Shown here: positions 2,913-58,156 of the stretch, one piece after another
Layout: every line of letters begins with the position of its first letter
How positions within the stretch are numbered: the stretch's first letter is position 1
Source: an uncultured Ignavibacteriaceae bacterium
GTDB taxonomy: Bacteria; Bacteroidota; Ignavibacteria; UBA10030; BY39
Reading direction: 5' to 3'
NCBI GenBank assembly: GCA_964581995.1
Contig: CAZOQB010000008.1
Span: forward strand, 9,499-73,498
Length of the DNA: 64,000 bases
Notes under the pieces: model-generated
What the model was told of the DNA's origin: nothing
Seen by the model: the letters and a program-made list of their open reading frames with translations, nothing else
Database searches by the model: none
Program-made: the position numbers and the translations under genes

Positions 2913-3773
2913 TTACTTAATCGGAGCTGTTTTAACTAAGATGTTATCGATTAAACGGACGTTACCGAAATGTGCCGCGAGCGAAACAAGAACCGGTTTA
3001 TCGGATATCGTTTCAACATCAGCAAGAGTTGTTTCGTCGGAGAATGCTATGTAATCCAATGTAAATTTTGGATTCGATAGAATCAAATCGGACATCTTCG
3101 ATTTGATTATTAATACAGAGCGCTCACCTTCCAGAATCATTTTGTCCGCAAGTTTAAGAGATTTATACAAAACAGCGGCTTCATCCTTCTCCCCGTTATT
3201 GATATAAACGTTCCGCGAACTCATTGCAAGCCCGTTGGCTTCGCGGACAATCGGCGCAACTATAATCTCAATATCGAAGTTTAAATCCTTAACCATTTTT
3301 TTAATTACGATTGCTTGTTGCGCATCCTTCTGTCCGAATACGGCAACATGAGGTTTAGTAATGTTAAAAAGCTTTGCAACAACTGTTGTTACGCCGCGGA
3401 AATGTGTGGGCCTAATTTGACCCTCCAGCGCCGAGGAAAAATTCTCTACATTTATGTAAGTAAGATAATTATGATTATACATCTCATTAACGCTCGGCGT
3501 GAAAACAACATCACTGCCTGCCGATTCACTCATAGCAACATCTCGATTGACATCGCGAGGATATTTTTCAAAATCTTCTTCCGGCGCAAATTGAGCCGGA
3601 TTGACAAAAACAGTGGTAATTACTATATCGGCGTGTTGCTTTACAAGGCGGATTAAACTCAAATGACCCTCGTGTAAATATCCCATCGTTGGCACGACAC
3701 CGATACGGTTACCGCTTAAGCGCATCTTCTCTGAATATTGCTGCATTTCTGTAATAGAACTTATAACCTGCAT
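2913..3773 (-). CDS. panC: Pantoate--beta-alanine ligase (pantothenate synthetase)
   Basis: 286 aa. GVVPTMGYLHEGHLSLI (HIGH-like motif) and overall PanC pattern. Confidence 0.9.
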   Translation of the reverse strand: MQVISSITEMQQYSEKMRLSGNRIGVVPTMGYLHEGHLSLIRLVKQHADIVITTVFVNPAQFAPEEDFEKYPRDVNRDVAMSESAGSDVVFTPSVNEMYNHNYLTYINVENFSSALEGQIRPTHFRGVTTVVAKLFNITKPHVAVFGQKDAQQAIVIKKMVKDLNFDIEIIVAPIVREANGLAMSSRNVYINNGEKDEAAVLYKSLKLADKMILEGERSVLIIKSKMSDLILSNPKFTLDYIAFSDETTLADVETISDKPVLVSLAAHFGNVRLIDNILVKTAPIK

Positions 3774-3850
3774 ATTTTTCTTTTCACTACATATTGATAA
3801 TTGATTACTGTTAATTTTTTGGATGGATAATCGATGTTTGAAGTTACTAT

Positions 3851-4696
3851 CTACTGCCCATACATCATCTTTAAAAGTTTTGTGACTGTCTCTTTCATCT
3901 CTTTTCTATGGACGACGATATCGACAAATCCTTTTTCGAGTTGAAACTCAGATCGTTGGAAGCCTGGCGGTAGATCTTTACCGATTGTCTGTCGAATTAC
4001 CCTTGGTCCTGCAAAACCTATTAAAGCACCGGGTTCTGCTATGTTGATATCTCCGAGCATAGCATAACTTGCAGTAACACCTCCGGTTGTCGGGTCAGTT
4101 AAGATGGAGATATACGGAATGCCCGCATCGGAAAGCTGCGCAAGCTTAGCGCTTGTTTTCGCAAGCTGCATGAGCGAAAGAGCGCCTTCCATCATACGCG
4201 CACCTCCGCTCGATGAAATTATTATCGCTGGAATTTTTTCTTTTCTTGCTTTATCAATGAGTCGGGCTATTTTTTCACCGACTACCGAACCCATACTGCC
4301 GCCGATAAAACTGAAATCCATACATGCTATTGCTGCATTAGTTCCGTTTATTTTGCCGACGCCTGTTCTAACCGCATCATTCAATCCTGATTTTGCAATC
4401 ATATCTTTGACCCTGGTTTTGTACGGCTTGGTGTCAACAAACTTGAGCGGGTCGGTTGAACGCATATTTTTATCCATTTCCTTAAAACTGCCGTCATCAA
4501 AAAGGATATTTAGATATTCTCTACTACCGATACGAAAATGAAAATTGCATTTCTGACATGTGAACAGCTGCTGCTCTAACATTGTGCGGTGAATAATTTC
4601 GCCGCAGCTTTCACATTTGGTCCATAAGCCATCCGGCACTTCTTTCTTCTTCGTTTCGGTAGCAATACTACCTTTCGACCTTTTAAACCATGCCAT
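3851..4696 (-). CDS. accD: Acetyl-CoA carboxylase carboxyltransferase subunit beta
   Basis: 281 aa. N-terminal Zn-ribbon CESCGEI..CQKCNFH followed by a carboxyltransferase domain ([14 protein letters not shown]). Confidence 0.9.
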
Positions 4697-4737
4697 ATGC
4701 TTGCTCCTGTTTATAGTTCTTCATACGTAATTTTTCT

Positions 4738-5436
4738 TTAGCCGTGCTGTGTCTTCACTACTGTTTGAAAGTCCTTTATATAGACCGGTTCGAGTTCTGA
4801 TAAATTTTCTGTTTCGTTCCTTACAAGCTTCTTTTCACCTAACAAAGCGACCGAAGCAGCACTGCATAAGTTAATTAATCCATCGTAAAAAATCCAGAAA
4901 TTTTTATTTAGTTCATTTTCTTGAGTCAGGATTTTGAATTTTGAGGCGCCATCGCCAATAAAGACTACTTCTGCGTCTGGAAGAATTTTCAGCAAATCAT
5001 TGAATTTTTTCGCTTGTGGCTCTACGACTGTCGCCAATTCCTTATAATTGACACGATAAAGGGCAGTATAAAATTCGTCACGGCGTGCATCTATCAACGG
5101 GCAGATAAGTGCACCATCTTTTATTTTTTCATGTATTATTAAATTATAAGCTAATGCTTCAAGTGTCGAGACAGCAACAATCGGTCGATCCGATGCGTAT
5201 GCTAATCCCTTTGCCACGCTTAAACCTATGCGCAGGCCGGTAAACGAGCCTGGACCGATTGAGATTGCGACGGCATCAAATGCCTCGATTGAATTTAGGA
5301 CCTGATCAATAATAGTTAATAACTTTTCCGAGTGTGTATGTGGTTCAGCCAGATATTTCTCTGAAATTAGTCTTCCATTTTCAACGACTGCAGCCGCGCA
5401 CACAGATGTTGCTGTTTCTATTCCTAAAATTTTCAT
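4738..5436 (-). CDS. tsaB: tRNA threonylcarbamoyladenosine biosynthesis protein TsaB (YeaZ)
   Basis: 232 aa. MKILGIETATSVCAAAV..., Kae1/YeaZ fold. 4-nt overlap with tsaE. Confidence 0.85.
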   Translation of the reverse strand: MKILGIETATSVCAAAVVENGRLISEKYLAEPHTHSEKLLTIIDQVLNSIEAFDAVAISIGPGSFTGLRIGLSVAKGLAYASDRPIVAVSTLEALAYNLIIHEKIKDGALICPLIDARRDEFYTALYRVNYKELATVVEPQAKKFNDLLKILPDAEVVFIGDGASKFKILTQENELNKNFWIFYDGLINLCSAASVALLGEKKLVRNETENLSELEPVYIKDFQTVVKTQHG

Positions 5437-5873
5437 TTTATATGTGCATCAACTTTATTTATTACAATTTCTCGAACTGTTTCTGATTCGCCAAGAGTGA
5501 ATAACACTTCGTATCTATTCGGTGGAAGTAAATCCATTATACGGTCTGCCCATTCAATTACACAGATACCTTCGTTATAAATGTAATCGTCAAACCCAAT
5601 TTCCTTAAGCTCGGAGGTTGATGCGATACGATAAAAGTCAAAATGAAATATTTTACAAACATTGGAAGCGTATTCATTCACAATAGTAAATGATGGACTT
5701 GAAACATGCTCGGTAACTCCAAGGCCGGAACATATCCCTTTTATAAAGCGAGTTTTACCTGAGCCTAATTCACCTATTAAAGCCACAACATCTCCAGCTT
5801 TGAGTTTAGTGCTTGCGAACTCTTTACCCAAAGCCACAGTTTCTTTTTCGCTATTCGATATGAACTTCGTCAT
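5433..5873 (-). CDS. tsaE: tRNA threonylcarbamoyladenosine biosynthesis ATPase TsaE (YjeE)
   Basis: 146 aa. P-loop GELGSGKT. Size and context with tsaB. Confidence 0.85.
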   Translation of the reverse strand: MTKFISNSEKETVALGKEFASTKLKAGDVVALIGELGSGKTRFIKGICSGLGVTEHVSSPSFTIVNEYASNVCKIFHFDFYRIASTSELKEIGFDDYIYNEGICVIEWADRIMDLLPPNRYEVLFTLGESETVREIVINKVDAHIK

Positions 5874-5882
5874 TTCTAAAAA

Positions 5883-7448
5883 TTAGACTTTTGGTTCTAA
5901 CACACTGAGGGGGAGAATAACTTCTTCCATCGAGATACCGCCGTGCTGAAAGCTGTCTCGATATTGAGCAAGATATTTATGATAGTCGGTGGGATACACA
6001 AAATAGTAATCTTCTTTTGCAATGATATAGTTTATCGTAACACCTCGATTTGGCAATCTATAGTCGGCGGGATTTTTTATGAAGATAGCATGTTTATCTT
6101 CCACTTTCAGATTTCTACCGAATTTATAACGGAGGTTAGTAGCAGCTTCACGGTCGCCAATAACTTTCGCGCCTCGCATACAGCGGATACTGCCGTGGTC
6201 GGTAGTTATCACGACTTTAACATTCTTCTGAGTTGAGAGAGTCTTTAACATATTGAAAAATGAAGAATGATTAAACCAGGACTGTGTTAGTGAGCGGTAG
6301 GCTGATTCCTCTGGGGCTATTTCCTTCAATAATTGTGAATCCGACCTGCCGTGAGCAAGCATATCCACAAAATTTACAACGATTGATGTCAATTTATTGT
6401 GAGTGTAGGATAAAATATTTTGTTCAATCCCCTTACCGAATTCAGGGTCGATAATTTTTATATATTTTGGTTCAGGTTTTAAGTTTATTTTCCGCCGTTC
6501 AAGCAGATTGATTAAAAACTCTGCTTCGTTTTTATTTCGACTATTGTCGTCGTCTTCCCATTTTTCCCAAATCTCAGGGAAACGCTTTTCGATATCATTG
6601 GGCCATGAGCCGCTAAAGATCGCATTTCGTGAATAGGGCGTTGCCGTTGGAAGAATTGAATAATAAAAATTCCTTTTTATGTCGTAGAAATCTCTCAGGG
6701 CATTTTCCATCCCTAACCATTGGTCAAGCCGCATACAATCCACCACAAAAAAGAAAACTGATTTACCATTTTGCAGTTCAGGAATTAAATACTTATCAAC
6801 AACATCGACAGAGAGCACGGGGCGTTTGGATGATTCGAGCCAGTGTTTGTAATTCTTCTCGATATAATTTGAAAACTCCTGGTTCGCAGTTCGGTACTGA
6901 TCTATAAGAGTGTCTTTTAAGCCAAGTTCAGGATGAGCATCAAAATCCATTGACCAACCGACAAGCTTATTGTATATTTGAACCCAATCGTCATGGTCGG
7001 GAGCGGAGAATAATGATGAAGAAATTTCATTAAACTCTTTTAGATAATCGCGAGAGACGTATTCGCTTTCGATCTTCTTGCCCTCTAAAAATTTTTTGCA
7101 AGCAAGCAGTATTTGACTTGGGTTAACAGGTTTGGTAAGATAATCGCTGATTTTCCCTCCGATTGCATTTTCCATTAAACCTTCGTCTTCACTTTTTGTA
7201 ACCATAACCACAGGCAGTTCAGGGCGAGTGTCCTTTATTTCGGAGAGAGTTCGCAGTCCGCCCATACCAGCCATCATCTCATCTAAAAAAACGAGGTCAA
7301 ATCTTTTTTTGGTTACCAACTCTACTGCATCTTCACCGTTGGTAGCAGTTTCAACGTCGTAACCTTTTTCTTTTAAAAAGAGGATATGTGGACGAAGAAG
7401 CTCGATTTCATCGTCAACCCAGAGGATTTTGCCTTTTGTACTTGTCAT
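5883..7448 (-). CDS. porX: PorX-like response regulator: CheY-type receiver fused to a PglZ (alkaline-phosphatase superfamily) domain; T9SS regulator
   Basis: 521 aa. N-terminal receiver (ILWVDDE...DLVFLDEMMAGMGG...VTK). The C-terminal ~380 aa has PglZ-like metal-binding motifs (VVDCMRLD, TDHG). The length matches PorX. Confidence 0.75.
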   Translation of the reverse strand: MTSTKGKILWVDDEIELLRPHILFLKEKGYDVETATNGEDAVELVTKKRFDLVFLDEMMAGMGGLRTLSEIKDTRPELPVVMVTKSEDEGLMENAIGGKISDYLTKPVNPSQILLACKKFLEGKKIESEYVSRDYLKEFNEISSSLFSAPDHDDWVQIYNKLVGWSMDFDAHPELGLKDTLIDQYRTANQEFSNYIEKNYKHWLESSKRPVLSVDVVDKYLIPELQNGKSVFFFVVDCMRLDQWLGMENALRDFYDIKRNFYYSILPTATPYSRNAIFSGSWPNDIEKRFPEIWEKWEDDDNSRNKNEAEFLINLLERRKINLKPEPKYIKIIDPEFGKGIEQNILSYTHNKLTSIVVNFVDMLAHGRSDSQLLKEIAPEESAYRSLTQSWFNHSSFFNMLKTLSTQKNVKVVITTDHGSIRCMRGAKVIGDREAATNLRYKFGRNLKVEDKHAIFIKNPADYRLPNRGVTINYIIAKEDYYFVYPTDYHKYLAQYRDSFQHGGISMEEVILPLSVLEPKV

Positions 7449-48284: not shown

Positions 48285-49016
48285 TTGACTAACGACAGCT
48301 CAATGCTCGATTACTTCTACACACAACCACAGAATATCAAACCCGACCGTCTCACAATCGATGGCGATGAATTCAGCCACCTCACACACGTTATGCGTAA
48401 GAAAATCGGAGAAAGGATTATGGTCGTAGATGGATTAGGTTCGGCTTACGAGGTTGAACTTACGCTATTCGAAAAGAAAAGAGCTGAAGCAAAAATTTTA
48501 TCATTACATACAAACCACAATGAAAGCGATTTGGATGTAACTATAGCTGTGGGAATATTAAAGAATCCGGCGAAGTTCGATTTCCTTGTAGAAAAAGTTA
48601 CGGAACTGGGAATACGTCAAATCATCCCTCTTAAAACTGAACGCACAATTCCTCAACACGCAAAGACCGACCGCTGGCAAAAACTCGCTCTCGCCGCAAT
48701 GAAACAATGCGGCAGGTCTTATCTGCCAACTGTACAACCACTTACTTCTCTCGGTGAATTACTAGAATCATCTCACGAATTCCAGTTAAAGATTGTGTTT
48801 CATAAAGACATTCAACCGACACAAAGTATAAACGAACTTCTCGACATTCCTAAATTAAAGTCGATAATAATTTTAATCGGACCGGAAGGCGGGTTCTCGG
48901 ATACCGAAATTGAAAAAGCAATCAGCCATGGATTCAAAGCAATCACATTAGGACAAAGACGATTGCGAACTGAAACCGCAGCAATTGCCGCCTCATCACT
49001 TTTTTTAGCAAGATAA
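48285..49016 (+). CDS. rsmE: 16S rRNA (uracil1498-N3)-methyltransferase
   Basis: 243 aa. PUA-like N-terminus, SPOUT C-terminus (IGPEGGFS). Confidence 0.85.
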   Translation: MTNDSSMLDYFYTQPQNIKPDRLTIDGDEFSHLTHVMRKKIGERIMVVDGLGSAYEVELTLFEKKRAEAKILSLHTNHNESDLDVTIAVGILKNPAKFDFLVEKVTELGIRQIIPLKTERTIPQHAKTDRWQKLALAAMKQCGRSYLPTVQPLTSLGELLESSHEFQLKIVFHKDIQPTQSINELLDIPKLKSIIILIGPEGGFSDTEIEKAISHGFKAITLGQRRLRTETAAIAASSLFLAR

Positions 49017-49020
49017 TATT

Positions 49021-49344
49021 ATGATTTACTGGATAGCAACACTTGGAATATTTGTTTGGAACCTCCCGTTTGGTTATTGGCGGACGAACGTTAGTAGATA
49101 CTCACTAAGCTGGATTGCTGCAATCCACATCCCGGTTTTGATGATTATTACATTCAGAATATTTTCAGGTATGGGATTTCAGTTATTCACCTTTCCATTA
49201 TTCGCAGGTGCTTTCTTTTCCGGACAATTAAGCGGTGGTAAGATTTATTCATGGCGGAAAGTACATGCTAAACTTCCTCTCAGCGGCTGTCTTGTTTGGG
49301 ACTTGGTTTCTGATTTCATGAGAAAGCGTTTTCGTAACGATTGA
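49021..49344 (+). CDS. Small 3-TM membrane protein of unknown function
   Basis: 107 aa, three hydrophobic helices. 4 nt after the rsmE stop. Confidence 0.4.
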   Translation: MIYWIATLGIFVWNLPFGYWRTNVSRYSLSWIAAIHIPVLMIITFRIFSGMGFQLFTFPLFAGAFFSGQLSGGKIYSWRKVHAKLPLSGCLVWDLVSDFMRKRFRND

Positions 49345-49416
49345 CTCCGACTTCGCACTGAGTCCCGCTGAAGCGGGATCGGAGGACGTTATTGAACATC
49401 GGATATCGAATATACA

Positions 49417-49456
49417 GTTGCCATTTTAAATAACTTTTTGTATGTTCAATTATCAT
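49417..49456. repeat. Copy 1 of imperfect 40-bp direct repeat (gttgccattttaaataactttttgtatgttcaattatcat)
   Basis: Matches 54237-54275 at 37/39 positions with a 1-nt indel. Lies 27 nt upstream of the TIR-like gene ATG. Confidence 0.85.
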
Positions 49457-49482
49457 ACCAGATAACAGAAAAAGATAATATT

Positions 49483-50919
49483 ATGAATCCCAAATTATTT
49501 ATTTCATATAGTTGGTCAACAGCGGAACATGGTCAATGGGTTATTGATCTCGCAACTTCCTTACGTGAATCGGGAGTTGATGTTATACTGGATAAATGGG
49601 ACCTGAGAGAAGGTAATGATGCCAATGCATTTATGGAAAAGATGGTCACAGACCCCGATATAAAAAAGGTTTTAATAATTTGCGATAAAAAATACTCTGA
49701 CAAAGCAGATCAGAGAGAAGGTGGTGTTGGTACAGAAACACAAATTATATCACCCGAAATATATAAAAACCAAAATCAAGATAAGTTTGTTGCAGTAATT
49801 TCTGAGTTAGATGAGAATGGCAAACCATATTTACCAGTATTTTATAAATCTAGAATATACATTGATCTATCGGATAACGAACGATATGCAATAAATTATG
49901 ATCAATTATTAAGATGGATTTATGACAAACCACTTTATGTTAAACCAGAACTTGGCGCCATGCCTTCGTTTCTTGATGAAAAAGATGGAATCAAATTAGG
50001 CACTACTTCAAATTATAGGCGTGCAATAGATGCATTAAAGAATAATCGGCCAAATGTCAAACCAGCATTACGTGATTATTTTGATAAGTTTGCACAGGGA
50101 TTTGAGCAGTTTAGAATAACAGAACGCAAAGGTGAATTTGATGATCAAGTAATAGAGAGTATTGAAAAATTTATTCCATATAAAAATGAGATTATTGATT
50201 TATTTAGCACGATCGTACAGTATTCAAATACAAAGGAGAATCAACAAATAATACATCGATTTTTCGAGAACTTGATTCCATATCTGGATAGGCCTGAAGG
50301 AGTTAATTCATTCTTTGAAACCGACTTTGATAATTTTAAATTTATGATTCATGAATTGTTTTTGTATTTAATTGCATCGTTTCTTAAGTACGAAGCATTT
50401 GATGCAGTTTCATATTTTTTACGAACCCCATACTTGATAAAAAATGCAGGCGAATACCCGAGAAATACCAACAATAACTATACTATATTTAGACCTTATC
50501 TTAAATCTTTGGAATATCGAAATCAAAGATTAAATCTACGGCAATATTCTCTTCATGCAAATCTGTTGCATAAATATTCAAAAGGCACAGGATTTCATTC
50601 TGAGGAGATTATGCAAGCGGATTTCATTTTATATATCAGAGATACCCTCGACTCAATTCGAAAGAAAACAGACTGGCGTTGGTATCCCGTTACATTGCAT
50701 TACATGGGTTTTAGTCATCCACCTTTTGAAATATTCGTTCGAGCAGAAGATGCGGAATATTTTAATATAATTAAGCCAATACTTAATATTAAAATGAAAG
50801 AAGACCTACAAATAATCTGGGGAGGTACTCAGCAAAGAAATATGCAGAAGCTCCGTATAGGAGATAATTCAATAAATCCTGAGGTGCTTCTTGGATACGA
50901 TAAATTGGCAACTCAATAG
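49483..50919 (+). CDS. TIR/SEFIR-like domain protein fused to an uncharacterised ~320-aa C-terminal domain
   Basis: ORF 49438-50919 begins with TTG inside the repeat; probable true start is ATG 49483 (MNPKLFISYSW). N-terminal ~150 aa fits the TIR_2/SEFIR pattern (LFISYSWSTAEHGQWVIDLATSLRESGVDVILDKWDLREGND...KVLIICDKKYSDKAD...FVAVISELD...PVFYKSRIYIDL). The remainder has no motif I recognise. AT-rich by eye. Confidence 0.65.
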   Translation: MNPKLFISYSWSTAEHGQWVIDLATSLRESGVDVILDKWDLREGNDANAFMEKMVTDPDIKKVLIICDKKYSDKADQREGGVGTETQIISPEIYKNQNQDKFVAVISELDENGKPYLPVFYKSRIYIDLSDNERYAINYDQLLRWIYDKPLYVKPELGAMPSFLDEKDGIKLGTTSNYRRAIDALKNNRPNVKPALRDYFDKFAQGFEQFRITERKGEFDDQVIESIEKFIPYKNEIIDLFSTIVQYSNTKENQQIIHRFFENLIPYLDRPEGVNSFFETDFDNFKFMIHELFLYLIASFLKYEAFDAVSYFLRTPYLIKNAGEYPRNTNNNYTIFRPYLKSLEYRNQRLNLRQYSLHANLLHKYSKGTGFHSEEIMQADFILYIRDTLDSIRKKTDWRWYPVTLHYMGFSHPPFEIFVRAEDAEYFNIIKPILNIKMKEDLQIIWGGTQQRNMQKLRIGDNSINPEVLLGYDKLATQ

Positions 50920-50954
50920 CGATCAAAGTATCCTCCAACCACTTTAAAAAGGAA

Positions 50955-50984
50955 CCCCGATACAAATCATCGGGTTTTGTTTTA
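50955..50984 (+). terminator. Rho-independent terminator after the TIR-like gene
   Basis: Stem cccgat/atcggg (50957-62, 50970-75), 7-nt loop, then ttttgtttt. Confidence 0.6.
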
Positions 50985-51090
50985 TAATACCTAACCGCTC
51001 TTACTTTCCTACTTCCAGCATTTGGAATGTTCCCGGCACAATTTTCGGTCGCGGGCGCGGGTTCTCACTCGTTGCTGGAGGTCTAGTAAG

Positions 51091-51597
51091 CTAATTTTTC
51101 TCTTCTTTATCTTCGCCCTTTTCAGAATCTTCAGTTTCTATTTTCATAACTTTGTTTGTCTTTGCATTCACGTCCACTTCAACAATTTTTCCGTCTTTAG
51201 TTTTAATCTCAAATGAGTAGATCGTTTTCCCTTTTTCTTTCTTCAATTCTTTTTGAACAATTTCACCCGGTACTTTTTTCAGTGCCGCCTTCTCGGCTTT
51301 ATCGGAGACTTGCTCTTCCTTTTCTTTTACTGCGGATTCTTCTTCTGCCTTGATAACCTTACCTGTCTTTGCATCAACCCAAACCTCCTTTGTCGTTTCG
51401 CCGACTTTTAAATCGAACGACCAAATCAATTTGCCTTCTTCTTTTTCTAATTCTGAGCTTTGAATAACTGCATCCTTAAATTGTTCGAGAGCAACTTTAG
51501 TGGCTTGTTCTTTTGTTATTTTCGCATCGTTTTTCTTCTGAGCAAAGCTTGTTGAAACTACAATCATACACACGAGTAACGCAATAAGAGATTTCAT
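51091..51597 (-). CDS. Secreted tandem-PepSY domain protein
   Basis: 168 aa. Signal peptide. Two PepSY-like repeats (KLIWSFDLKVGETTKEVWVDAKTGKVIK, KTIYSFEIKTKDGKIVEVDVNAKTNKVMK) separated by Lys/Glu-rich linkers. Confidence 0.7.
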   Translation of the reverse strand: MKSLIALLVCMIVVSTSFAQKKNDAKITKEQATKVALEQFKDAVIQSSELEKEEGKLIWSFDLKVGETTKEVWVDAKTGKVIKAEEESAVKEKEEQVSDKAEKAALKKVPGEIVQKELKKEKGKTIYSFEIKTKDGKIVEVDVNAKTNKVMKIETEDSEKGEDKEEKN

Positions 51598-51819
51598 TTT
51601 TTACCTTTCAATTTGTTAAATACACCATTTTAAGATAGGAAGAAATTTAAGTATTTCCAACAGAAATCGCCTTTTTAAAGCTATTTTCCCCATTGAATCC
51701 TTTTCCAAATGGCTGCATCCCACACTTAGAGAAACTCTATAACAAGAATAAACGTTATTTGAAAAGATAGAAAAAACTAACTAAAGGATCCCTTATAACA
51801 TTTAAAAACGGAGTAATCC

Positions 51820-54105
51820 ATGCACATCAAAATTAGGCTATCTCGCTTAATTATCATCTTAGGCGTTTTATTTTTATATACATTTTCGTCGTTTTCTCAA
51901 GAGTACATTTTACTCGGTTGGAATGATCTCGGTATGCATTGTTCCAACAAAGACTTTTCTAAGGTTGTAGTCCTGCCGCCTTACAACAACATCACAGCGC
52001 AGCTAATTCTCAAACAACCAAATCAATTACCACAAGTTGTTACCTCCGGTTATACTATCGAGTATTCAATTCCTAATAACACATACTCTGTCGGTAAGAC
52101 AAATTTCTGGACTTACGCACAACAATTGTTTGGCTTGTCTTCACCATTACTACCTAACATCGGTTTAACAGGCAAGGGTCTTACCGGAGTTCTTGATAGC
52201 AGCGGAACTTATTTTGCTGCACATGGAATTCCCATAACCCCATTTACAGATACCGATTTAGTTAATGAATCGCCGTATCAGTTGATTCATCTTGTTGCCA
52301 GAAGTAAAGCTAACGGCAGCATTCTTGCCACAACGGACGTTGTTATTCCTGTAAGTAACGAAGTAGGTTGCGTGCAATCGGGGTGTCATAGTTCTGAGAC
52401 GTCTATATTAAATGCACATGAGCCGGTTTCCGGCTTTAACAGATCGGGACCCGTGTTATGCGCATCGTGTCATGCTTCAAATGCGCTTGGTACTACGGGT
52501 ATTCCGGAAGCGCAATCTTTTTCTTTTCGAATTCATGATAAACACAAAGATGTTGCAGGACCTTCAAACAGTATTTCTACATGTTATAAATGTCATCCCG
52601 GACCGAATACACAATGTCTGCGCGATGTAATGGGAAAGAATCCAACCAACCCAATGGTGTGCCAGGATTGTCACGGAACCATGAGCAATGTCGCATCAAC
52701 AATTACAGCAGGCAGACGACCCTGGCTTGACGAACCCAAATGTGGAACATGCCACGGACCCACGCATGCGGAAGAGACTGGGAAGTTGTACAGACAATCA
52801 AAAGGTCATGGTGGTTTGTTTTGTTCCGCGTGCCATGGAAGTCCACATGCTATACAGCCGACAGTTCAACCGAACGATAATCTTCAGAATACAAGACTTC
52901 AAGGATTTGCCGGTACTTTACAAAAATGTTCTGTTTGTCATACCACACGCATGGATGGTTCGGGTCCTCACGGTATCACGGATACAACAACTGTTGTCAT
53001 CGCTACGCCTTCACTCTCCTTTCCGCCTGACGGTTCAACTGGAATTACTACCCGTCCGCAACTGCAGTGGAATTCCGTGCCGAATGCACAGACATACGTT
53101 TTGCAAGTATCGTTAGATTCGCTTTTTGCAACAACTGTTGTCGATGATTCTTCACTTTCCCAAACTTCACTACAGCTTAATCCGTTAATTTCGATTACAA
53201 AATATTATTGGAGAGTTCGCGCAAAAAATTCAAACATCATAAGTGCCTGGTCGCCAAGATGGGAATTTATTACTACAGAAGGCACAACACTCACAGTAAA
53301 TTTAGATATGAAATGGAATTTGGTATCGCTTCCTCTTGAAGTTATTAATCCAAGTATAAATACTCTATTCCCTACGGCAAGTACAAAAGCTTTTCAATAC
53401 TTCGGGGGCAGTGGATATCTACAGAATGATTCGCTGTCGTTTGGAAATGGTTATTGGATAAAATTTGGCGCCTCACAATCCGTAAATGTTACAGGTACAC
53501 CGGTTAATTCAGATTCTATAGCTGTTACAACTGGATGGAACCTCGTCGGTTCAATATCAACCGCAGTCCCAACCGCATCCATTATCAGCGATCCACCCGG
53601 ATTGGTTACCAGCATTTTTTATGGATACCAAGGAAGTTATGTACAATCCGACACTATTTTCCCTGGAAAAGCATACTGGGTGAAAGTAAATCAACCGGGT
53701 CGCTTTATATTATCGTCGGGCGTCGCGAAAAATTCGTTCAAGACAATTCAGATAACACCTTCATCCGAGATGCCTCCACCTCCGCCGGGTGGTGAGCCGA
53801 CAGTAATTAAAGAAATTCCAAAAGACTATTTGTTGGCACAATCATATCCTAATCCGTTCAATCCTTCTACGAGGATTAGTTATACGCTTCCGGTAGATAG
53901 TAAAGTAACGTTGAAAATATTCGACATGCTCGGTCGCGATATTGTTACGCTGGTTCAAGCGGAGCAAAGTCAAGGTTACCGAACCGTTGAATGGAATGCG
54001 GTGGGATATACAAGCGGAATCTATTTTTATAAGATCGAAGCTGTGAGTGTTGACGATCCGAATAAGGTGTTCACGGATATTAAAAAAATGGTTGTGCTGA
54101 AATAA
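51820..54105 (+). CDS. Multiheme c-type cytochrome (6 CxxCH plus 1 CX4CH) with FN3-like domain and T9SS C-terminal sorting domain
   Basis: 761 aa. Signal peptide. Heme motifs CASCH, CYKCH, CQDCH, CGTCH, CSACH, CSVCH plus CVQSGCH. FN3-like segment (PQLQWNSVPNAQTYVLQVS...YYWRVRAKN). C-terminal ~85 aa match the Por/T9SS CTD (SYPNPFNPSTRISYTLP..VTLKIFDMLGRDIVTLV...SGIYFYKIEA...KKMVVLK). Confidence 0.8.
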   Translation: MHIKIRLSRLIIILGVLFLYTFSSFSQEYILLGWNDLGMHCSNKDFSKVVVLPPYNNITAQLILKQPNQLPQVVTSGYTIEYSIPNNTYSVGKTNFWTYAQQLFGLSSPLLPNIGLTGKGLTGVLDSSGTYFAAHGIPITPFTDTDLVNESPYQLIHLVARSKANGSILATTDVVIPVSNEVGCVQSGCHSSETSILNAHEPVSGFNRSGPVLCASCHASNALGTTGIPEAQSFSFRIHDKHKDVAGPSNSISTCYKCHPGPNTQCLRDVMGKNPTNPMVCQDCHGTMSNVASTITAGRRPWLDEPKCGTCHGPTHAEETGKLYRQSKGHGGLFCSACHGSPHAIQPTVQPNDNLQNTRLQGFAGTLQKCSVCHTTRMDGSGPHGITDTTTVVIATPSLSFPPDGSTGITTRPQLQWNSVPNAQTYVLQVSLDSLFATTVVDDSSLSQTSLQLNPLISITKYYWRVRAKNSNIISAWSPRWEFITTEGTTLTVNLDMKWNLVSLPLEVINPSINTLFPTASTKAFQYFGGSGYLQNDSLSFGNGYWIKFGASQSVNVTGTPVNSDSIAVTTGWNLVGSISTAVPTASIISDPPGLVTSIFYGYQGSYVQSDTIFPGKAYWVKVNQPGRFILSSGVAKNSFKTIQITPSSEMPPPPPGGEPTVIKEIPKDYLLAQSYPNPFNPSTRISYTLPVDSKVTLKIFDMLGRDIVTLVQAEQSQGYRTVEWNAVGYTSGIYFYKIEAVSVDDPNKVFTDIKKMVVLK

Positions 54106-54133
54106 ACCTTAAAATATCCAAGTTGCATTTTGA

Positions 54134-54168
54134 TTGCCACGGGCTTTTGTTCGTGGCAATTTTTATTT
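54134..54168 (+). terminator. Rho-independent terminator after the cytochrome gene
   Basis: Stem ttgccacg/cgtggcaa (54134-41, 54152-59), 10-nt loop, then tttttattt. Confidence 0.7.
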
Positions 54169-54236
54169 ATGCCGGCTAACCTCCCGAATGCTTAATTTGC
54201 TTTAACATGATTACCTTCGGGATGTTCACACAAAAG

Positions 54237-54275
54237 TTGCCATTTTCAGTAACTTTTTGTATGTTCAATTATCAT
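54237..54275. repeat. Copy 2 of imperfect ~40-bp direct repeat (gttgccattttcagtaactttttgtatgttcaattatcat)
   Basis: 37/39 match to 49417-49456 (copy 1 is 40 nt; 1-nt indel plus two substitutions). Lies in the 3' intergenic region between convergent genes, so it is not a promoter for any adjacent + strand gene. Confidence 0.85.
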
Positions 54276-54349
54276 TTCTAAGCGGTGCGGAAATTAGAGT
54301 GGGTGCTATAAAAGCTTTACAATGCTAGAAAAAATGTGAAGAGAACGCT

Positions 54350-54961
54350 TTAAATCGCAACTATCCCTAACCACAACTGATAAAATCCAAAACATGCTAA
54401 TGCAATTGCCGATAATAATATCATAATCCGGTCTATTCGTGGACCCAGACTTTTTGCTGCACTGAAAAGTATAATTATTACCATAGAAGTTATTATCATC
54501 GTACCGTAAAAAGCAGCTACTAATGCAATTCCATTAGCAGGAGCTTCTCTCCATCCCTTAAGCATTAGCGGTCCTAATACCAAACTCCAGCCGAGATACG
54601 GACCGGGGCTTAGGAAATTCACGAAAACTGCTTTTAAGACAGTCGTTTGGGTGGATTGAATCTCAACCGTTTTGTTCACATCAAAATTCTTCCACGTCAT
54701 AAAAGTCCCGAAAGCTAAATAGAGGACGAACGCTCCACCGGAAAAATGTAACACTTGTTCAAGCCAATCAGGCATACTGCTTAACACTAATATAACCAAC
54801 GCCGCGATTGGTAAATCAGTTATGAGTGGCGCAAAAGTAGCGGGTAGTGTACGCTTCCAACCTATTCTCAGGGCCTGAGATATAAAATAAGTTTGTAAGG
54901 GTCCCGGCTGCACAGCGGCTGCGAAGCCATAAGTCAACCCAAAAATTATATAAAAAAGCAT
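54350..54961 (-). CDS. LysE/RhtB family amino-acid exporter
   Basis: 203 aa, 6 TM. N-terminal GPLQTYFISQAL-like LysE motif. Confidence 0.8.
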   Translation of the reverse strand: MLFYIIFGLTYGFAAAVQPGPLQTYFISQALRIGWKRTLPATFAPLITDLPIAALVILVLSSMPDWLEQVLHFSGGAFVLYLAFGTFMTWKNFDVNKTVEIQSTQTTVLKAVFVNFLSPGPYLGWSLVLGPLMLKGWREAPANGIALVAAFYGTMIITSMVIIILFSAAKSLGPRIDRIMILLSAIALACFGFYQLWLGIVAI

Positions 54962-56485: not shown

Positions 56486-58156
56486 TCACCGTATCAACTT
56501 CTTATACTTAATCCTATGCGGCTTGTCGGCTTCAATACCGAGAATTTTTCTGCGGTGTTCTTCAAACTCTGAATAATTTCCGTCGAACCATATTGCTTCA
56601 CTGTCGCCTTCAAAAGCGAGAATATGCGTTGCAACTCTATCGAGGAACCAGCGGTCGTGGGAAATTATTACCGCACAACCGGCAAAATTTTCAAGCGCTT
56701 CTTCGAGAGCGCGCAGCGTGTTCACGTCGAGGTCATTTGTCGGCTCATCGAGTAACAGAACATTAGCGCCTTGACTTAAAACTTTAGCGAGATGAACACG
56801 ATTTCGTTCACCGCCAGAGAGCACACCAACCGGTTTTTGTTGGTCCGTTCCGCTGAAATTGAACCGGGCAACGTAGGCGCGTGAGTTCATTTCACGGTTG
56901 CCTAACTTTATCAAATCTTCGCCGCCGGATATTTCCTGCCAAATTGTTTTGTCCGGGTCAAGTGGACGGTTCTGGTCGACGTAGGCAAGCTTTACCGTTT
57001 CACCTACCACAATCTTACCCGCTTCAGGTTTCTCCTGACCTGTTATCATTCGGAAAAGTGTGGTTTTACCTGCACCATTCGGACCGATTATACCAATAAT
57101 ACCACCGGCAGGTAAGTTAAATTCGAGGTTTTCATAGAGGATAATATCGCCATAGGATTTTGCAACTTTTTCTGCTCTGATTACAACATCACCTAAGCGT
57201 GGACCGGGCGGTATGTAAATTTCAATTTCTTCACTTCGCTTTTCGTTTTCCTCTGCAAACATTTTTTCATACGCGGCGATACGTGCTTTACTTTTTGCGT
57301 GGCGTCCCTTCGGATTTAATCGTATCCATTCCAACTCACGCTGTAAAACTTTTTGCCGTTTAGATTCCTGTTTCTCCTCTACAGCAAGACGCGCTCGTTT
57401 TTGTTCAAGCCACGATGAATAATTTCCCTGGAATGGAATTCCCTCGCCGCGGTCAAGTTCTAAAATCCATCCGGCAACATTATCTAAAAAATATCGGTCG
57501 TGTGTTACCGCAATTACAGTTCCTTTGTACTGAGAGAGATGGTGTTCAAGCCATGCAACCGATTCAGCGTCGAGATGATTTGTGGGTTCATCGAGAAGCA
57601 ACACATCCGGTTCCTGCAAGAGAAGACGACACAATGCAACACGACGACGTTCACCGCCGGAGATAACCGACACTGATGTTTCGGGTGGCGGACAACGGAG
57701 TGCGTCCATCGCTTGCTCAAGTTTACTGTCGATATCCCAGGCACCGAGATGATCTATTTTTTCCTGTAGCTTGGCTTGCTTTTCAAGCAAAACATCGAAA
57801 TCCGCATCTGGTTCTGAAAACTTTGCGCTTATCGCTTCATATTCTTTCAGAAGATTGACTGATTCTGCCGCACCTTCCTCGGCGATTTGTCGGACAGTTT
57901 TGGTTTGGTCAAGTTCAGGTTCCTGCTGAAGGTAACCAAAAGTAATTCCTTTTTGAGCCGTGACCTCTCCGAGGTAATCTTTATCTACACCGGCGATGAT
58001 TCGGAGTAGCGTGCTTTTACCGGATCCGTTCAAACCAAGCACTCCGATTTTAGCACCGTAATAGAATGAAAGGTAAATATCTTTTAAAACCTGCTTGTTG
58101 GGTTTGTGAACTTTCCCAACACCGATCATTGAAAATATTATTTTATTATCTGCCAT
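56486..58156 (-). CDS. ettA: Energy-dependent translational throttle protein EttA (ABC-F ATPase)
   Basis: 556 aa. Two ABC cassettes (GLNGSGKST, GPNGAGKTT; LSGGERRRV, LSGGERNRV) with an arm insertion. Length typical of EttA. Confidence 0.9.
   Translation of the reverse strand: MADNKIIFSMIGVGKVHKPNKQVLKDIYLSFYYGAKIGVLGLNGSGKSTLLRIIAGVDKDYLGEVTAQKGITFGYLQQEPELDQTKTVRQIAEEGAAESVNLLKEYEAISAKFSEPDADFDVLLEKQAKLQEKIDHLGAWDIDSKLEQAMDALRCPPPETSVSVISGGERRRVALCRLLLQEPDVLLLDEPTNHLDAESVAWLEHHLSQYKGTVIAVTHDRYFLDNVAGWILELDRGEGIPFQGNYSSWLEQKRARLAVEEKQESKRQKVLQRELEWIRLNPKGRHAKSKARIAAYEKMFAEENEKRSEEIEIYIPPGPRLGDVVIRAEKVAKSYGDIILYENLEFNLPAGGIIGIIGPNGAGKTTLFRMITGQEKPEAGKIVVGETVKLAYVDQNRPLDPDKTIWQEISGGEDLIKLGNREMNSRAYVARFNFSGTDQQKPVGVLSGGERNRVHLAKVLSQGANVLLLDEPTNDLDVNTLRALEEALENFAGCAVIISHDRWFLDRVATHILAFEGDSEAIWFDGNYSEFEEHRRKILGIEADKPHRIKYKKLIR

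Follow-up and report, generated by a model that had tools for sequence, protein, structure and literature searches.

Does an AT-rich gene that lies among housekeeping genes in an Ignavibacteriales genome encode a phage defence protein and, if so, is the architecture of that protein new? From the letters of the DNA alone, an earlier analysis (the sequence-only reading) had proposed a TIR/SEFIR-like, single-gene defence candidate of the NADase type, and had suggested that its architecture could be an undescribed variant. We have examined both proposals using the window, meaning the whole stretch of DNA that was analysed (64,000 nucleotides). The gene very probably encodes a canonical, full-length member of the bSEFIR family of single-protein defence systems. 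We consider that it was acquired horizontally by an Ignavibacteriales bacterium and that, by homology, it would act by depleting NAD+.

The features of the locus are listed in Table 1. In the list of open reading frames, the + strand gene runs from an ATG at position 49483 to a TAG stop codon at 50917-50919. An in-frame TTG further upstream, at position 49438, would lengthen the protein by 15 residues. Homologues, and an identical protein in public assemblies (P0001), begin at the ATG-encoded MNPKLFISYSW and not at the TTG.

Table 1. Features of the bSEFIR gene and its surroundings, in window positions.
Feature	Position	Strand	Remarks
bSEFIR coding sequence	49483..50919	+	478 aa plus stop codon; PADLOC PDLC03957 match; identical public protein P0001
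N-terminal SEFIR (TIR-superfamily) domain, aa 1-155	49483..49947	+	Pfam, 5Y8E/5Y8F and Foldseek matches; presumed NADase effector
Interdomain linker, about aa 156-167	49948..49983	+	Low pLDDT; conserved G158 and P161
C-terminal all-alpha, solenoid-like domain, aa 168-478	49984..50916	+	Presumed infection sensor/regulator; conserved D283, E291, W400 and F418
Terminator-like GC-rich hairpin	50956..50974	.	37 nt past the stop codon; both strands have T runs
Direct repeat, copy 1	49416..49456	+	41 nt; 26 nt before the ATG; uncertain whether it belongs to the gene
Direct repeat, copy 2	54235..54275	+	2 mismatches; flanked by the T9SS multihaem gene and the 3' end of lysE

The N-terminal SEFIR domain

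The motifs from which a TIR/SEFIR fold had been read are all present in the protein. These are LFISYSW (residues 5-11), WVIDLATSL (residues 19-27), VILDKWDL (residues 34-41) and LIICDKKYSDKAD (residues 64-76). Using hmmscan, we found matches to the Pfam families SEFIR (PF08357; E = 6.8e-19, 69.1 bits, residues 4-121) and TIR_2 (PF13676; E = 1.5e-15, 58.2 bits, residues 6-143). Both matches are significant and exceed the curated cut-offs. Together with the PADLOC bSEFIR matches described below, they uphold the proposal of a SEFIR/TIR-type, single-gene defence candidate. Previously, bSEFIR proteins were selected by the rule that an N-terminal SEFIR match is stronger than the TIR match (10.1101/2022.05.11.491447). 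The window protein has this pattern, with SEFIR at the N-terminus outscoring TIR_2 (69.1 versus 58.2 bits); our scores are from hmmscan and the rule was applied by its authors with HHsearch.

The most similar protein of known structure is BcSEFIR, a bacterial SEFIR domain from Bacillus cereus (PDB 5Y8E/5Y8F; Yang et al. 2018). The match extends across residues 3-155 (E = 2.4e-38), with about 55% identity as judged by eye, and the sequences ILD(K/R)W and GGVGTE are common to both proteins. When an AF2 model of the window protein was used to search with Foldseek, 5y8e was the best match (TM 0.73-0.76, target-normalised). The SEFIR assembly of IL-17RA/RB/ACT1 came next, followed by the SPARTA TIR domain. 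The crystal structure of BcSEFIR differs from the window protein in that it spans the N-terminal domain only.

Eukaryotic SEFIR domains, as found in the IL-17 receptors and Act1, belong to the same Pfam family, and the IL-17RA/RB/ACT1 assembly (9OT1) is a structural match with an E-value of about 6e-3. The eukaryotic proteins differ in having only 18-20% identity to the window protein and entirely different surrounding domains. They are signalling adaptors that work via SEFIR-SEFIR contacts, and we found no report of NADase activity for them in the literature examined.

TIR NADase effectors, including AbTIR, SPARTA TIR-APAZ, Thoeris ThsB and SARM1-type TIR domains, share the same superfamily fold. 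By analogy, they may also share the proposed chemistry, which is the oligomerisation-activated conversion of NAD+ to ADPR and nicotinamide. Conversely, matches between these proteins and the window protein have E-values of 0.085 or worse, cover only the first ~50 residues, and are accompanied by no pAgo or ThsA partner in the window. Weak PADLOC matches were also obtained for other TIR modules; these were Aga_TIR (0.0014-0.0049, residues 4-129) and SAVED_TIR (0.0099). In published work, SEFIR has been treated as an outgroup to the TIR clades (PMC13142454).

We considered two TIR-containing systems as identities for the gene and rejected both. A Thoeris assignment was discarded because there is no adjacent ThsA-type effector, of either the SIR2 or the Macro/SLOG kind, and no PADLOC Ths match. 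Similarly, a short pAgo or SPARTA assignment was discarded because the protein has no APAZ domain, no pAgo gene is nearby, and the Aga_TIR matches are confined to the TIR part.

Conserved residues of the SEFIR domain are D37, G44, E52, Y71, R78 and the motif G80-G81-V82-G83-T84-E85. D37, which lies in the ILDKW motif, is conserved in at least 97% of family members and D40 in at least 90% of the close set; the window protein has both. Glutamate E85, at the end of GGVGTE, is invariant in 45 close homologues, is conserved in 85-97% of 82 diverse members, and is kept in 5Y8E. The residue sits ~80 positions past strand A, which we take to be the location of the catalytic glutamate in TIR NADases (SARM1 E642 and ThsB E85). 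Judged by position only, E85 is a candidate catalytic glutamate. We also attempted to assign the catalytic residue by profile alignment to TIR NADases. This approach was abandoned since the alignments span only the first ~50 residues; those to AbTIR end near residue 50, short of the E85 region.

In the AF2 model, pLDDT falls below 50 in the GGVGTE loop. Confidence is low throughout residues 78-87 (RxGGVGTExQ), the most conserved SEFIR loop, and again at residues 43-46, the loop after strand B. Poorly modelled but conserved loops would fit a model in which assembly is needed for the active site to form.

Family membership and the C-terminal domain

The PADLOC bSEFIR model (PDLC03957) matches residues 2-449 of the protein with an E-value of 1e-119 and a score of 399 bits, covering profile positions 38-362 of 412. 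For comparison, the same model gives 334 bits for a homologue from a Bacillus cereus plasmid and 344 bits for a homologue from a Klebsiella prophage. In a BLASTP alignment, the homologue from the B. cereus plasmid, which here stands in for the Bacillus protein tested by others, is 38% identical to the window protein across residues 3-445, and both domains are aligned. The C-terminal ~320 residues had been described as matching nothing recognisable. This description has to be withdrawn; residues 156-478 alone match the bSEFIR model with an E-value of 7.6e-27 (profile positions 190-362).

A word-indexed search returned more than 5000 homologues. The best 120 of these are nearly all full-length (428-495 residues) and are 52-74% identical to the window protein. 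Where a source is named among these 120, it is bacterial (Vibrio, Photobacterium, Planctomycetes, Patescibacteria, Nitrospiraceae, Tissierellales) or archaeal (Methanosarcinaceae, Methanoperedens, Methanophagaceae). With the C-terminal domain as the query, an exhaustive search identified 1298 representative clusters. Among the matches listed, 76 of the 77 full-length representatives with this C-terminal domain also have the SEFIR N-terminus. The single exception (P0270) has the same C-terminal domain behind a TIR domain of the CAP12/PCTIR type.

SEFIR joined to a C-terminal domain of this kind is already known, as the canonical architecture of published bSEFIR. The suggestion of an undescribed variant falls with the full-length PADLOC match and the architecture shared by the listed representatives. 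Indeed, any run of PADLOC or DefenseFinder would label the gene. The likeness to the bSEFIR system of Millman et al. extends to an N-terminal SEFIR domain and a helical C-terminus of ~320 residues, in a protein of about 480. It further includes the full-length match to the family HMM, retention of the core residues, and a stand-alone, horizontally mobile gene. In contrast with the Bacillus bSEFIR proteins, the window protein belongs to a different clade, at about 38% identity, and has an Ignavibacteriales host. Its gene also lies by itself among housekeeping genes and not in a defence island.

We compared conservation of the two domains in an alignment of 82 diverse family members. Their median identity to the window protein reaches 58% in the N-terminal domain but 33% in the C-terminal one. 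Positions conserved in at least 97% of these proteins are L27, D37, L41, G44, M51, E52, V63, Y71, P118 and R144 in the N-terminal part, and G158, P161, D283, E291, W400 and F418 from the linker on. All are kept in the window protein. Note that pLDDT is below 50 at residues 154-167, and yet two of the invariant positions, G158 and P161, are within this segment.

We also modelled the C-terminal domain by itself, using the family alignment, and obtained an all-alpha structure with high confidence (pLDDT 90.3, pTM 0.92). A Foldseek search of the PDB and of viral models with this domain gave no significant match, and such fold matches as there were are to generic helical-repeat structures only. There are no matches to Pfam or NCBIfam models in the C-terminal domain, the NCBIfam scan of the protein being empty, and no specific relative was found among solved structures. 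Our literature search found no structural or mechanistic paper on the bSEFIR C-terminal domain, and none of the literature found states the infection cue that this domain would sense. The domain is structurally uncharacterised, yet it is a known part of the family and not a new fusion.

Several observations point to a layout in which an N-terminal effector is joined to a C-terminal sensor. We favour this layout because the N-terminal domain is far more conserved than the C-terminal domain, because P0270 swaps the effector on the same C-terminal domain, and because AF2 confidence is low at the most conserved SEFIR loops. On the strength of this architecture, we infer that the C-terminal domain is the sensor. 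The family-level question is what the all-alpha domain senses and how the SEFIR NADase is switched on. The C-terminal model, used with the list of family-invariant residues, could steer mutagenesis aimed at this question.

Genomic setting of the gene and the 41-nt repeat

The rsmE gene (48285-49016) lies upstream and is followed by an open reading frame encoding a hydrophobic protein of 107 residues. Downstream, genes for a PepSY protein and for a 761-residue multihaem protein, which carries a T9SS sorting tail, are found between bSEFIR and lysE (54350-54961, minus strand). The sequence-only reading had placed the gene between rsmE and lysE. Both are indeed nearby, but the 107-residue open reading frame follows rsmE, and lysE is 3.4 kb downstream. 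The gene had also been thought more AT-rich than its flanks, and this was correct. Its GC content (0.330, z -2.87) and GC3 (0.253, z -3.37) are each the lowest among the 48 genes of the window. The intrinsic terminator ascribed to the gene was recovered as a hairpin with a dG of -11.7 kcal/mol (z -2.5), and a T run follows.

The nearest genomes are Ignavibacteriales MAGs, with identities of 60-64% for POTRA and about 81% for GcvPB and FabF. The gene block fabF-rnc-gcvPB-CoA_binding-POTRA-rsmE is syntenic at seven related loci, a few of which are truncated or missing one gene. Synteny stops at rsmE, and different metabolic genes, and no SEFIR gene, are located downstream in all three of the relatives examined. 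No bSEFIR gene was found downstream of rsmE in the 5 relatives that have enough downstream sequence and that keep synteny from fabF to rsmE. Conservation of the neighbourhood had been put forward as a check on the proposal; the gene is missing from the syntenic position in relatives. The lack of an HMM match, or a syntenic gene of host-like GC content, had been named as results that would count against a defence gene. We looked for both, and found significant matches and an AT-rich gene out of synteny. Taken together, the lowest GC and GC3 values, the absence of synteny in relatives and the terminator-like hairpin give the gene the appearance of a solitary cassette that was acquired horizontally. 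Hence, bSEFIR can occur within a housekeeping block as an AT-rich cassette of one gene.

We found no defence island in the 64-kb window, and the neighbouring genes are housekeeping or metabolic. Other window genes encode SprA, an S46 peptidase, a hybrid histidine kinase, an ABC-F ATPase and Pirin. A neighbouring gene for a 556-residue protein (56486-58156) was considered as a defence gene, in view of PADLOC matches to mad3, AriA and GajA, and rejected. Its product is an ABC-F type ATPase with a double ABC_tran domain.

Homologues elsewhere are likewise single genes, and the neighbours of this 478-residue protein and its relatives are unrelated at every homologue locus examined. The gene for a 69%-identical protein (P0004) has an unrelated neighbourhood that includes ftsA and ftsZ. 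For a 74%-identical protein (P0002), DNA similarity is confined to the coding region; the flanks are unrelated and the gene is more AT-rich than they are. Plasmids provide 176 homologue records, 24 of which cover at least 80% of the query. In a P2-like Klebsiella phage, one prophage homologue is encoded with replication genes on one side and portal genes on the other. Other homologue genes adjoin an AimR gene, on a phage-like Bacillus plasmid, and a gene for a 1096-residue Eco57I/N6_Mtase protein, which is an Eco57I-type methylase/restriction enzyme.

A 40-bp repeat had been reported 27 nt upstream of the gene, with a second copy 4.8 kb away. The repeat is real, but it is 41 nt long and its distance to the ATG is 26 nt. 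Its two copies are spaced by 4819 nt, are 95% identical and have sharp edges; no match arose in 100 shuffles. They bracket exactly the bSEFIR, PepSY and multihaem genes. Copy 1 contains the promoter-like hexamers TTGCCA-17-TATGTT. These were rejected as evidence for a promoter since 12 such sites were counted and 11.2 expected, which is a chance density. An Rfam scan of positions 49000-54400 gave no match.

The repeats raise the alternative that a 4.8-kb cassette, made up of bSEFIR, PepSY and the T9SS multihaem gene, entered by site-specific or homologous recombination and left att-like scars. This alternative concerns acquisition and is compatible with our explanation of bSEFIR function. We consider it unlikely. 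It would account for sharp-edged, 95% identical repeats that enclose just these three genes, all of which are missing beside rsmE in relatives. Conversely, there is no integrase or other mobility gene inside, and only bSEFIR is compositionally foreign; the z-score of PepSY is -1.5 and the GC content of the multihaem region, at 0.40-0.45, is host-typical. The closest homologues share the coding region only, without the repeat, and we did not find the repeat upstream of homologues elsewhere. Further copies were sought in metagenome contigs, where the exact repeat core had 0 matches. An empty site was sought among relatives identified using POTRA; these are only 41-64% identical, and their synteny with the window breaks off just past rsmE. 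At 80 loci encoding relatives of the T9SS multihaem protein, no other neighbour was common to the window. At most tentatively, the repeat may be an att-like scar of a 4.8-kb insertion.

Proposed mechanism and competing functions

Previously, a SEFIR protein encoded by Bacillus sp. NIO-1130 was found to protect against phage phi29, and the D40A substitution abolished this defence (10.1101/2022.05.11.491447). In that tested protein, D40, numbered as in the Bacillus sequence, is the conserved aspartate at the SEFIR-SEFIR interface (10.1101/2022.05.11.491447). SEFIR homologues were described in 460 genomes from more than 20 phyla, plus Methanosarcina (10.1101/2022.05.11.491447). The window gene adds a case from Ignavibacteriales to a defence family already catalogued across those phyla, and means little beyond annotation. 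According to passages in two later preprints, from the same group and others, that cite this work, the Bacillus homologue depletes NAD+ through its N-terminal SEFIR domain (10.1101/2024.02.11.579819; 10.64898/2026.09.04.749371). The same passages give ADPR and nicotinamide as products of SEFIR, as of TIR and SIR2, and state that SEFIR defence is cancelled by the NARP1 pathway of phages (10.1101/2024.02.11.579819; 10.64898/2026.09.04.749371).

By homology with the Bacillus family member, we propose the same NAD+-depletion mechanism for the window gene. In an uninfected cell, the bSEFIR protein would be inactive. Upon infection, the C-terminal all-alpha domain would detect an infection cue, and this detection would release or drive self-association of the N-terminal SEFIR domains. 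Once assembled, these domains would break NAD+ down by hydrolysis, releasing ADP-ribose and nicotinamide. With the infected cell starved of NAD+, phage replication would abort. Activation by oligomerisation, and activity of the protein in this particular host, are what we infer by the same reasoning. A further conjecture has two arms. In one, the deeply conserved polar and aromatic residues D283, E291, W400 and F418 would line a pocket that accepts a conserved infection cue, a small molecule or a nucleic acid, rather than make up a surface for a variable phage protein. In the other, the 41-nt repeats would mark a new, integrase-less 4.8-kb cassette by which a defence gene travels with genes for a PepSY protein and a secreted multihaem cytochrome. 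Taken jointly, this is distinctly unlikely.

Other functions can be envisaged for the protein. The SEFIR domain belongs to the TIR superfamily, and has a weak PADLOC likeness to Aga_TIR (0.0014) and SAVED_TIR (0.0099). It might then behave in the manner of ThsB, producing a nucleotide second messenger that a separate effector would respond to, and not depleting NAD+ itself. We regard this as highly improbable. The gene has no conserved partner, since neighbours are wholly different between homologues, and no ThsA, SAVED or pAgo protein is encoded nearby. Moreover, bSEFIR has been published as a single-gene system that depletes NAD+. It is also very improbable that the protein is a non-immune scaffold for protein-protein interactions that takes no part in defending this organism against phages. 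A scaffold role had earlier been hypothesised for SEFIR domains of bacteria (quoted in 10.1101/2022.05.11.491447), and would suit both the housekeeping surroundings, which lack a defence island, and the helical-repeat fold of the C-terminal domain, which is typical of protein-binding modules. Set against this are the foreign composition and non-syntenic position of the gene, the occurrence of homologues on prophages and plasmids and also beside restriction-modification genes, and the defence against phage provided by the tested Bacillus homologue.

The remaining alternative to an NAD+-depleting defence protein is that the gene is an inactive relic that has lost its function. The gene is isolated, and the window protein deviates from the family at three C-terminal positions that are 85-97% conserved (R234K, R365Y and S423D). 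Even so, a relic is highly improbable. The 478-residue open reading frame is intact and full-length, and the protein retains every residue conserved in at least 97% of the family. Its score against the family HMM is very high, exceeding that of the plasmid homologue and that of the prophage homologue, and the identical protein, P0001, is encoded on contigs from four samples.

The rsmE-bSEFIR interval and the flanking repeat

We examined the DNA surrounding the bSEFIR gene. The features are listed in the table below.

Features of the window around the bSEFIR gene
Feature	Position	Strand	Description
Hydrophobic ORF, 107 aa	49021-49344	+	Begins 5 nt past the rsmE stop codon
Nested GC-rich hairpin	49345-49384	+	CTCCGA...TCCCGC TGAA GCGGGA TCGGAG; between the 107-aa ORF and the 41-nt repeat
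Direct repeat, 41 nt	49416-49456 and 54235-54275		Sharp edges; 2 mismatches between copies
SEFIR loop after strand B	49609-49620		aa 43-46
SEFIR conserved motif	49714-49743		aa 78-87, R78...GGVGTE...Q87
Double-PepSY protein	51091-51597	-	Divergent from the adjoining multihaem gene
Multihaem protein, 761 aa	51820-54105	+	Several CxxCH motifs; MtrC/MtrF-like and cytochrome c7 signatures; Por_Secre_tail
Double ABC_tran, ABC-F type ATPase	56486-58156	-	PADLOC matches mad3 (4.9e-59), also AriA and GajA

The 107-aa ORF has no Pfam or PADLOC match and no gene call in the public ENA contig, and tblastn of related loci returned no match to it. It may encode a small membrane protein or else be spurious. 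The hairpin that follows has a folding energy (dG) of -18.3 kcal/mol but a z-score of just -1.25, and may serve the rsmE operon as a T-less terminator.

Together, the two repeat copies enclose the bSEFIR, PepSY and multihaem genes. No integrase lies between them. An exact scan of metagenome contigs for the repeat core found no copies elsewhere, and the repeat is absent upstream of bSEFIR homologues. From its motifs, the 761-aa protein looks like a multihaem cytochrome exported by T9SS. Relatives of this protein are frequent in metagenomes (568 confirmed). Across the 80 relative loci that we compared, the neighbours seen in the window were never found beside them.

Defence context of the window and of a homologue

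The ABC-F ATPase was considered as a further defence gene and rejected, because its strong PADLOC matches come from generic ABC ATPase similarity. It is likely to be a false positive for automated defence-system scans. The bSEFIR homologue P0007 (58% identical) has different surroundings. In its locus, L099, P0007 is followed directly by the gene for an Eco57I/N6_Mtase protein of 1096 aa (L099 positions 3233-6523), along with two genes that lack annotation. This is a typical defence-island context, unlike that of the window locus.

The SEFIR loop and an exchanged N-terminus

In the AlphaFold model, pLDDT falls below 50 at two places in the SEFIR domain: its most conserved motif and the loop after strand B. 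The remainder of the domain is modelled confidently. The low values may reflect an active site that becomes ordered only upon oligomerisation.

P0270, a metagenomic representative from outside the window, shares its C-terminal helical domain with bSEFIR and matches positions 182-368 of the PADLOC bSEFIR profile (E=3.3e-19). At its N-terminus, a CAP12/PCTIR TIR domain (PF10137) takes the place of SEFIR. Judged from these domain assignments, the two proteins represent an effector swap, with the presumed sensor in common.
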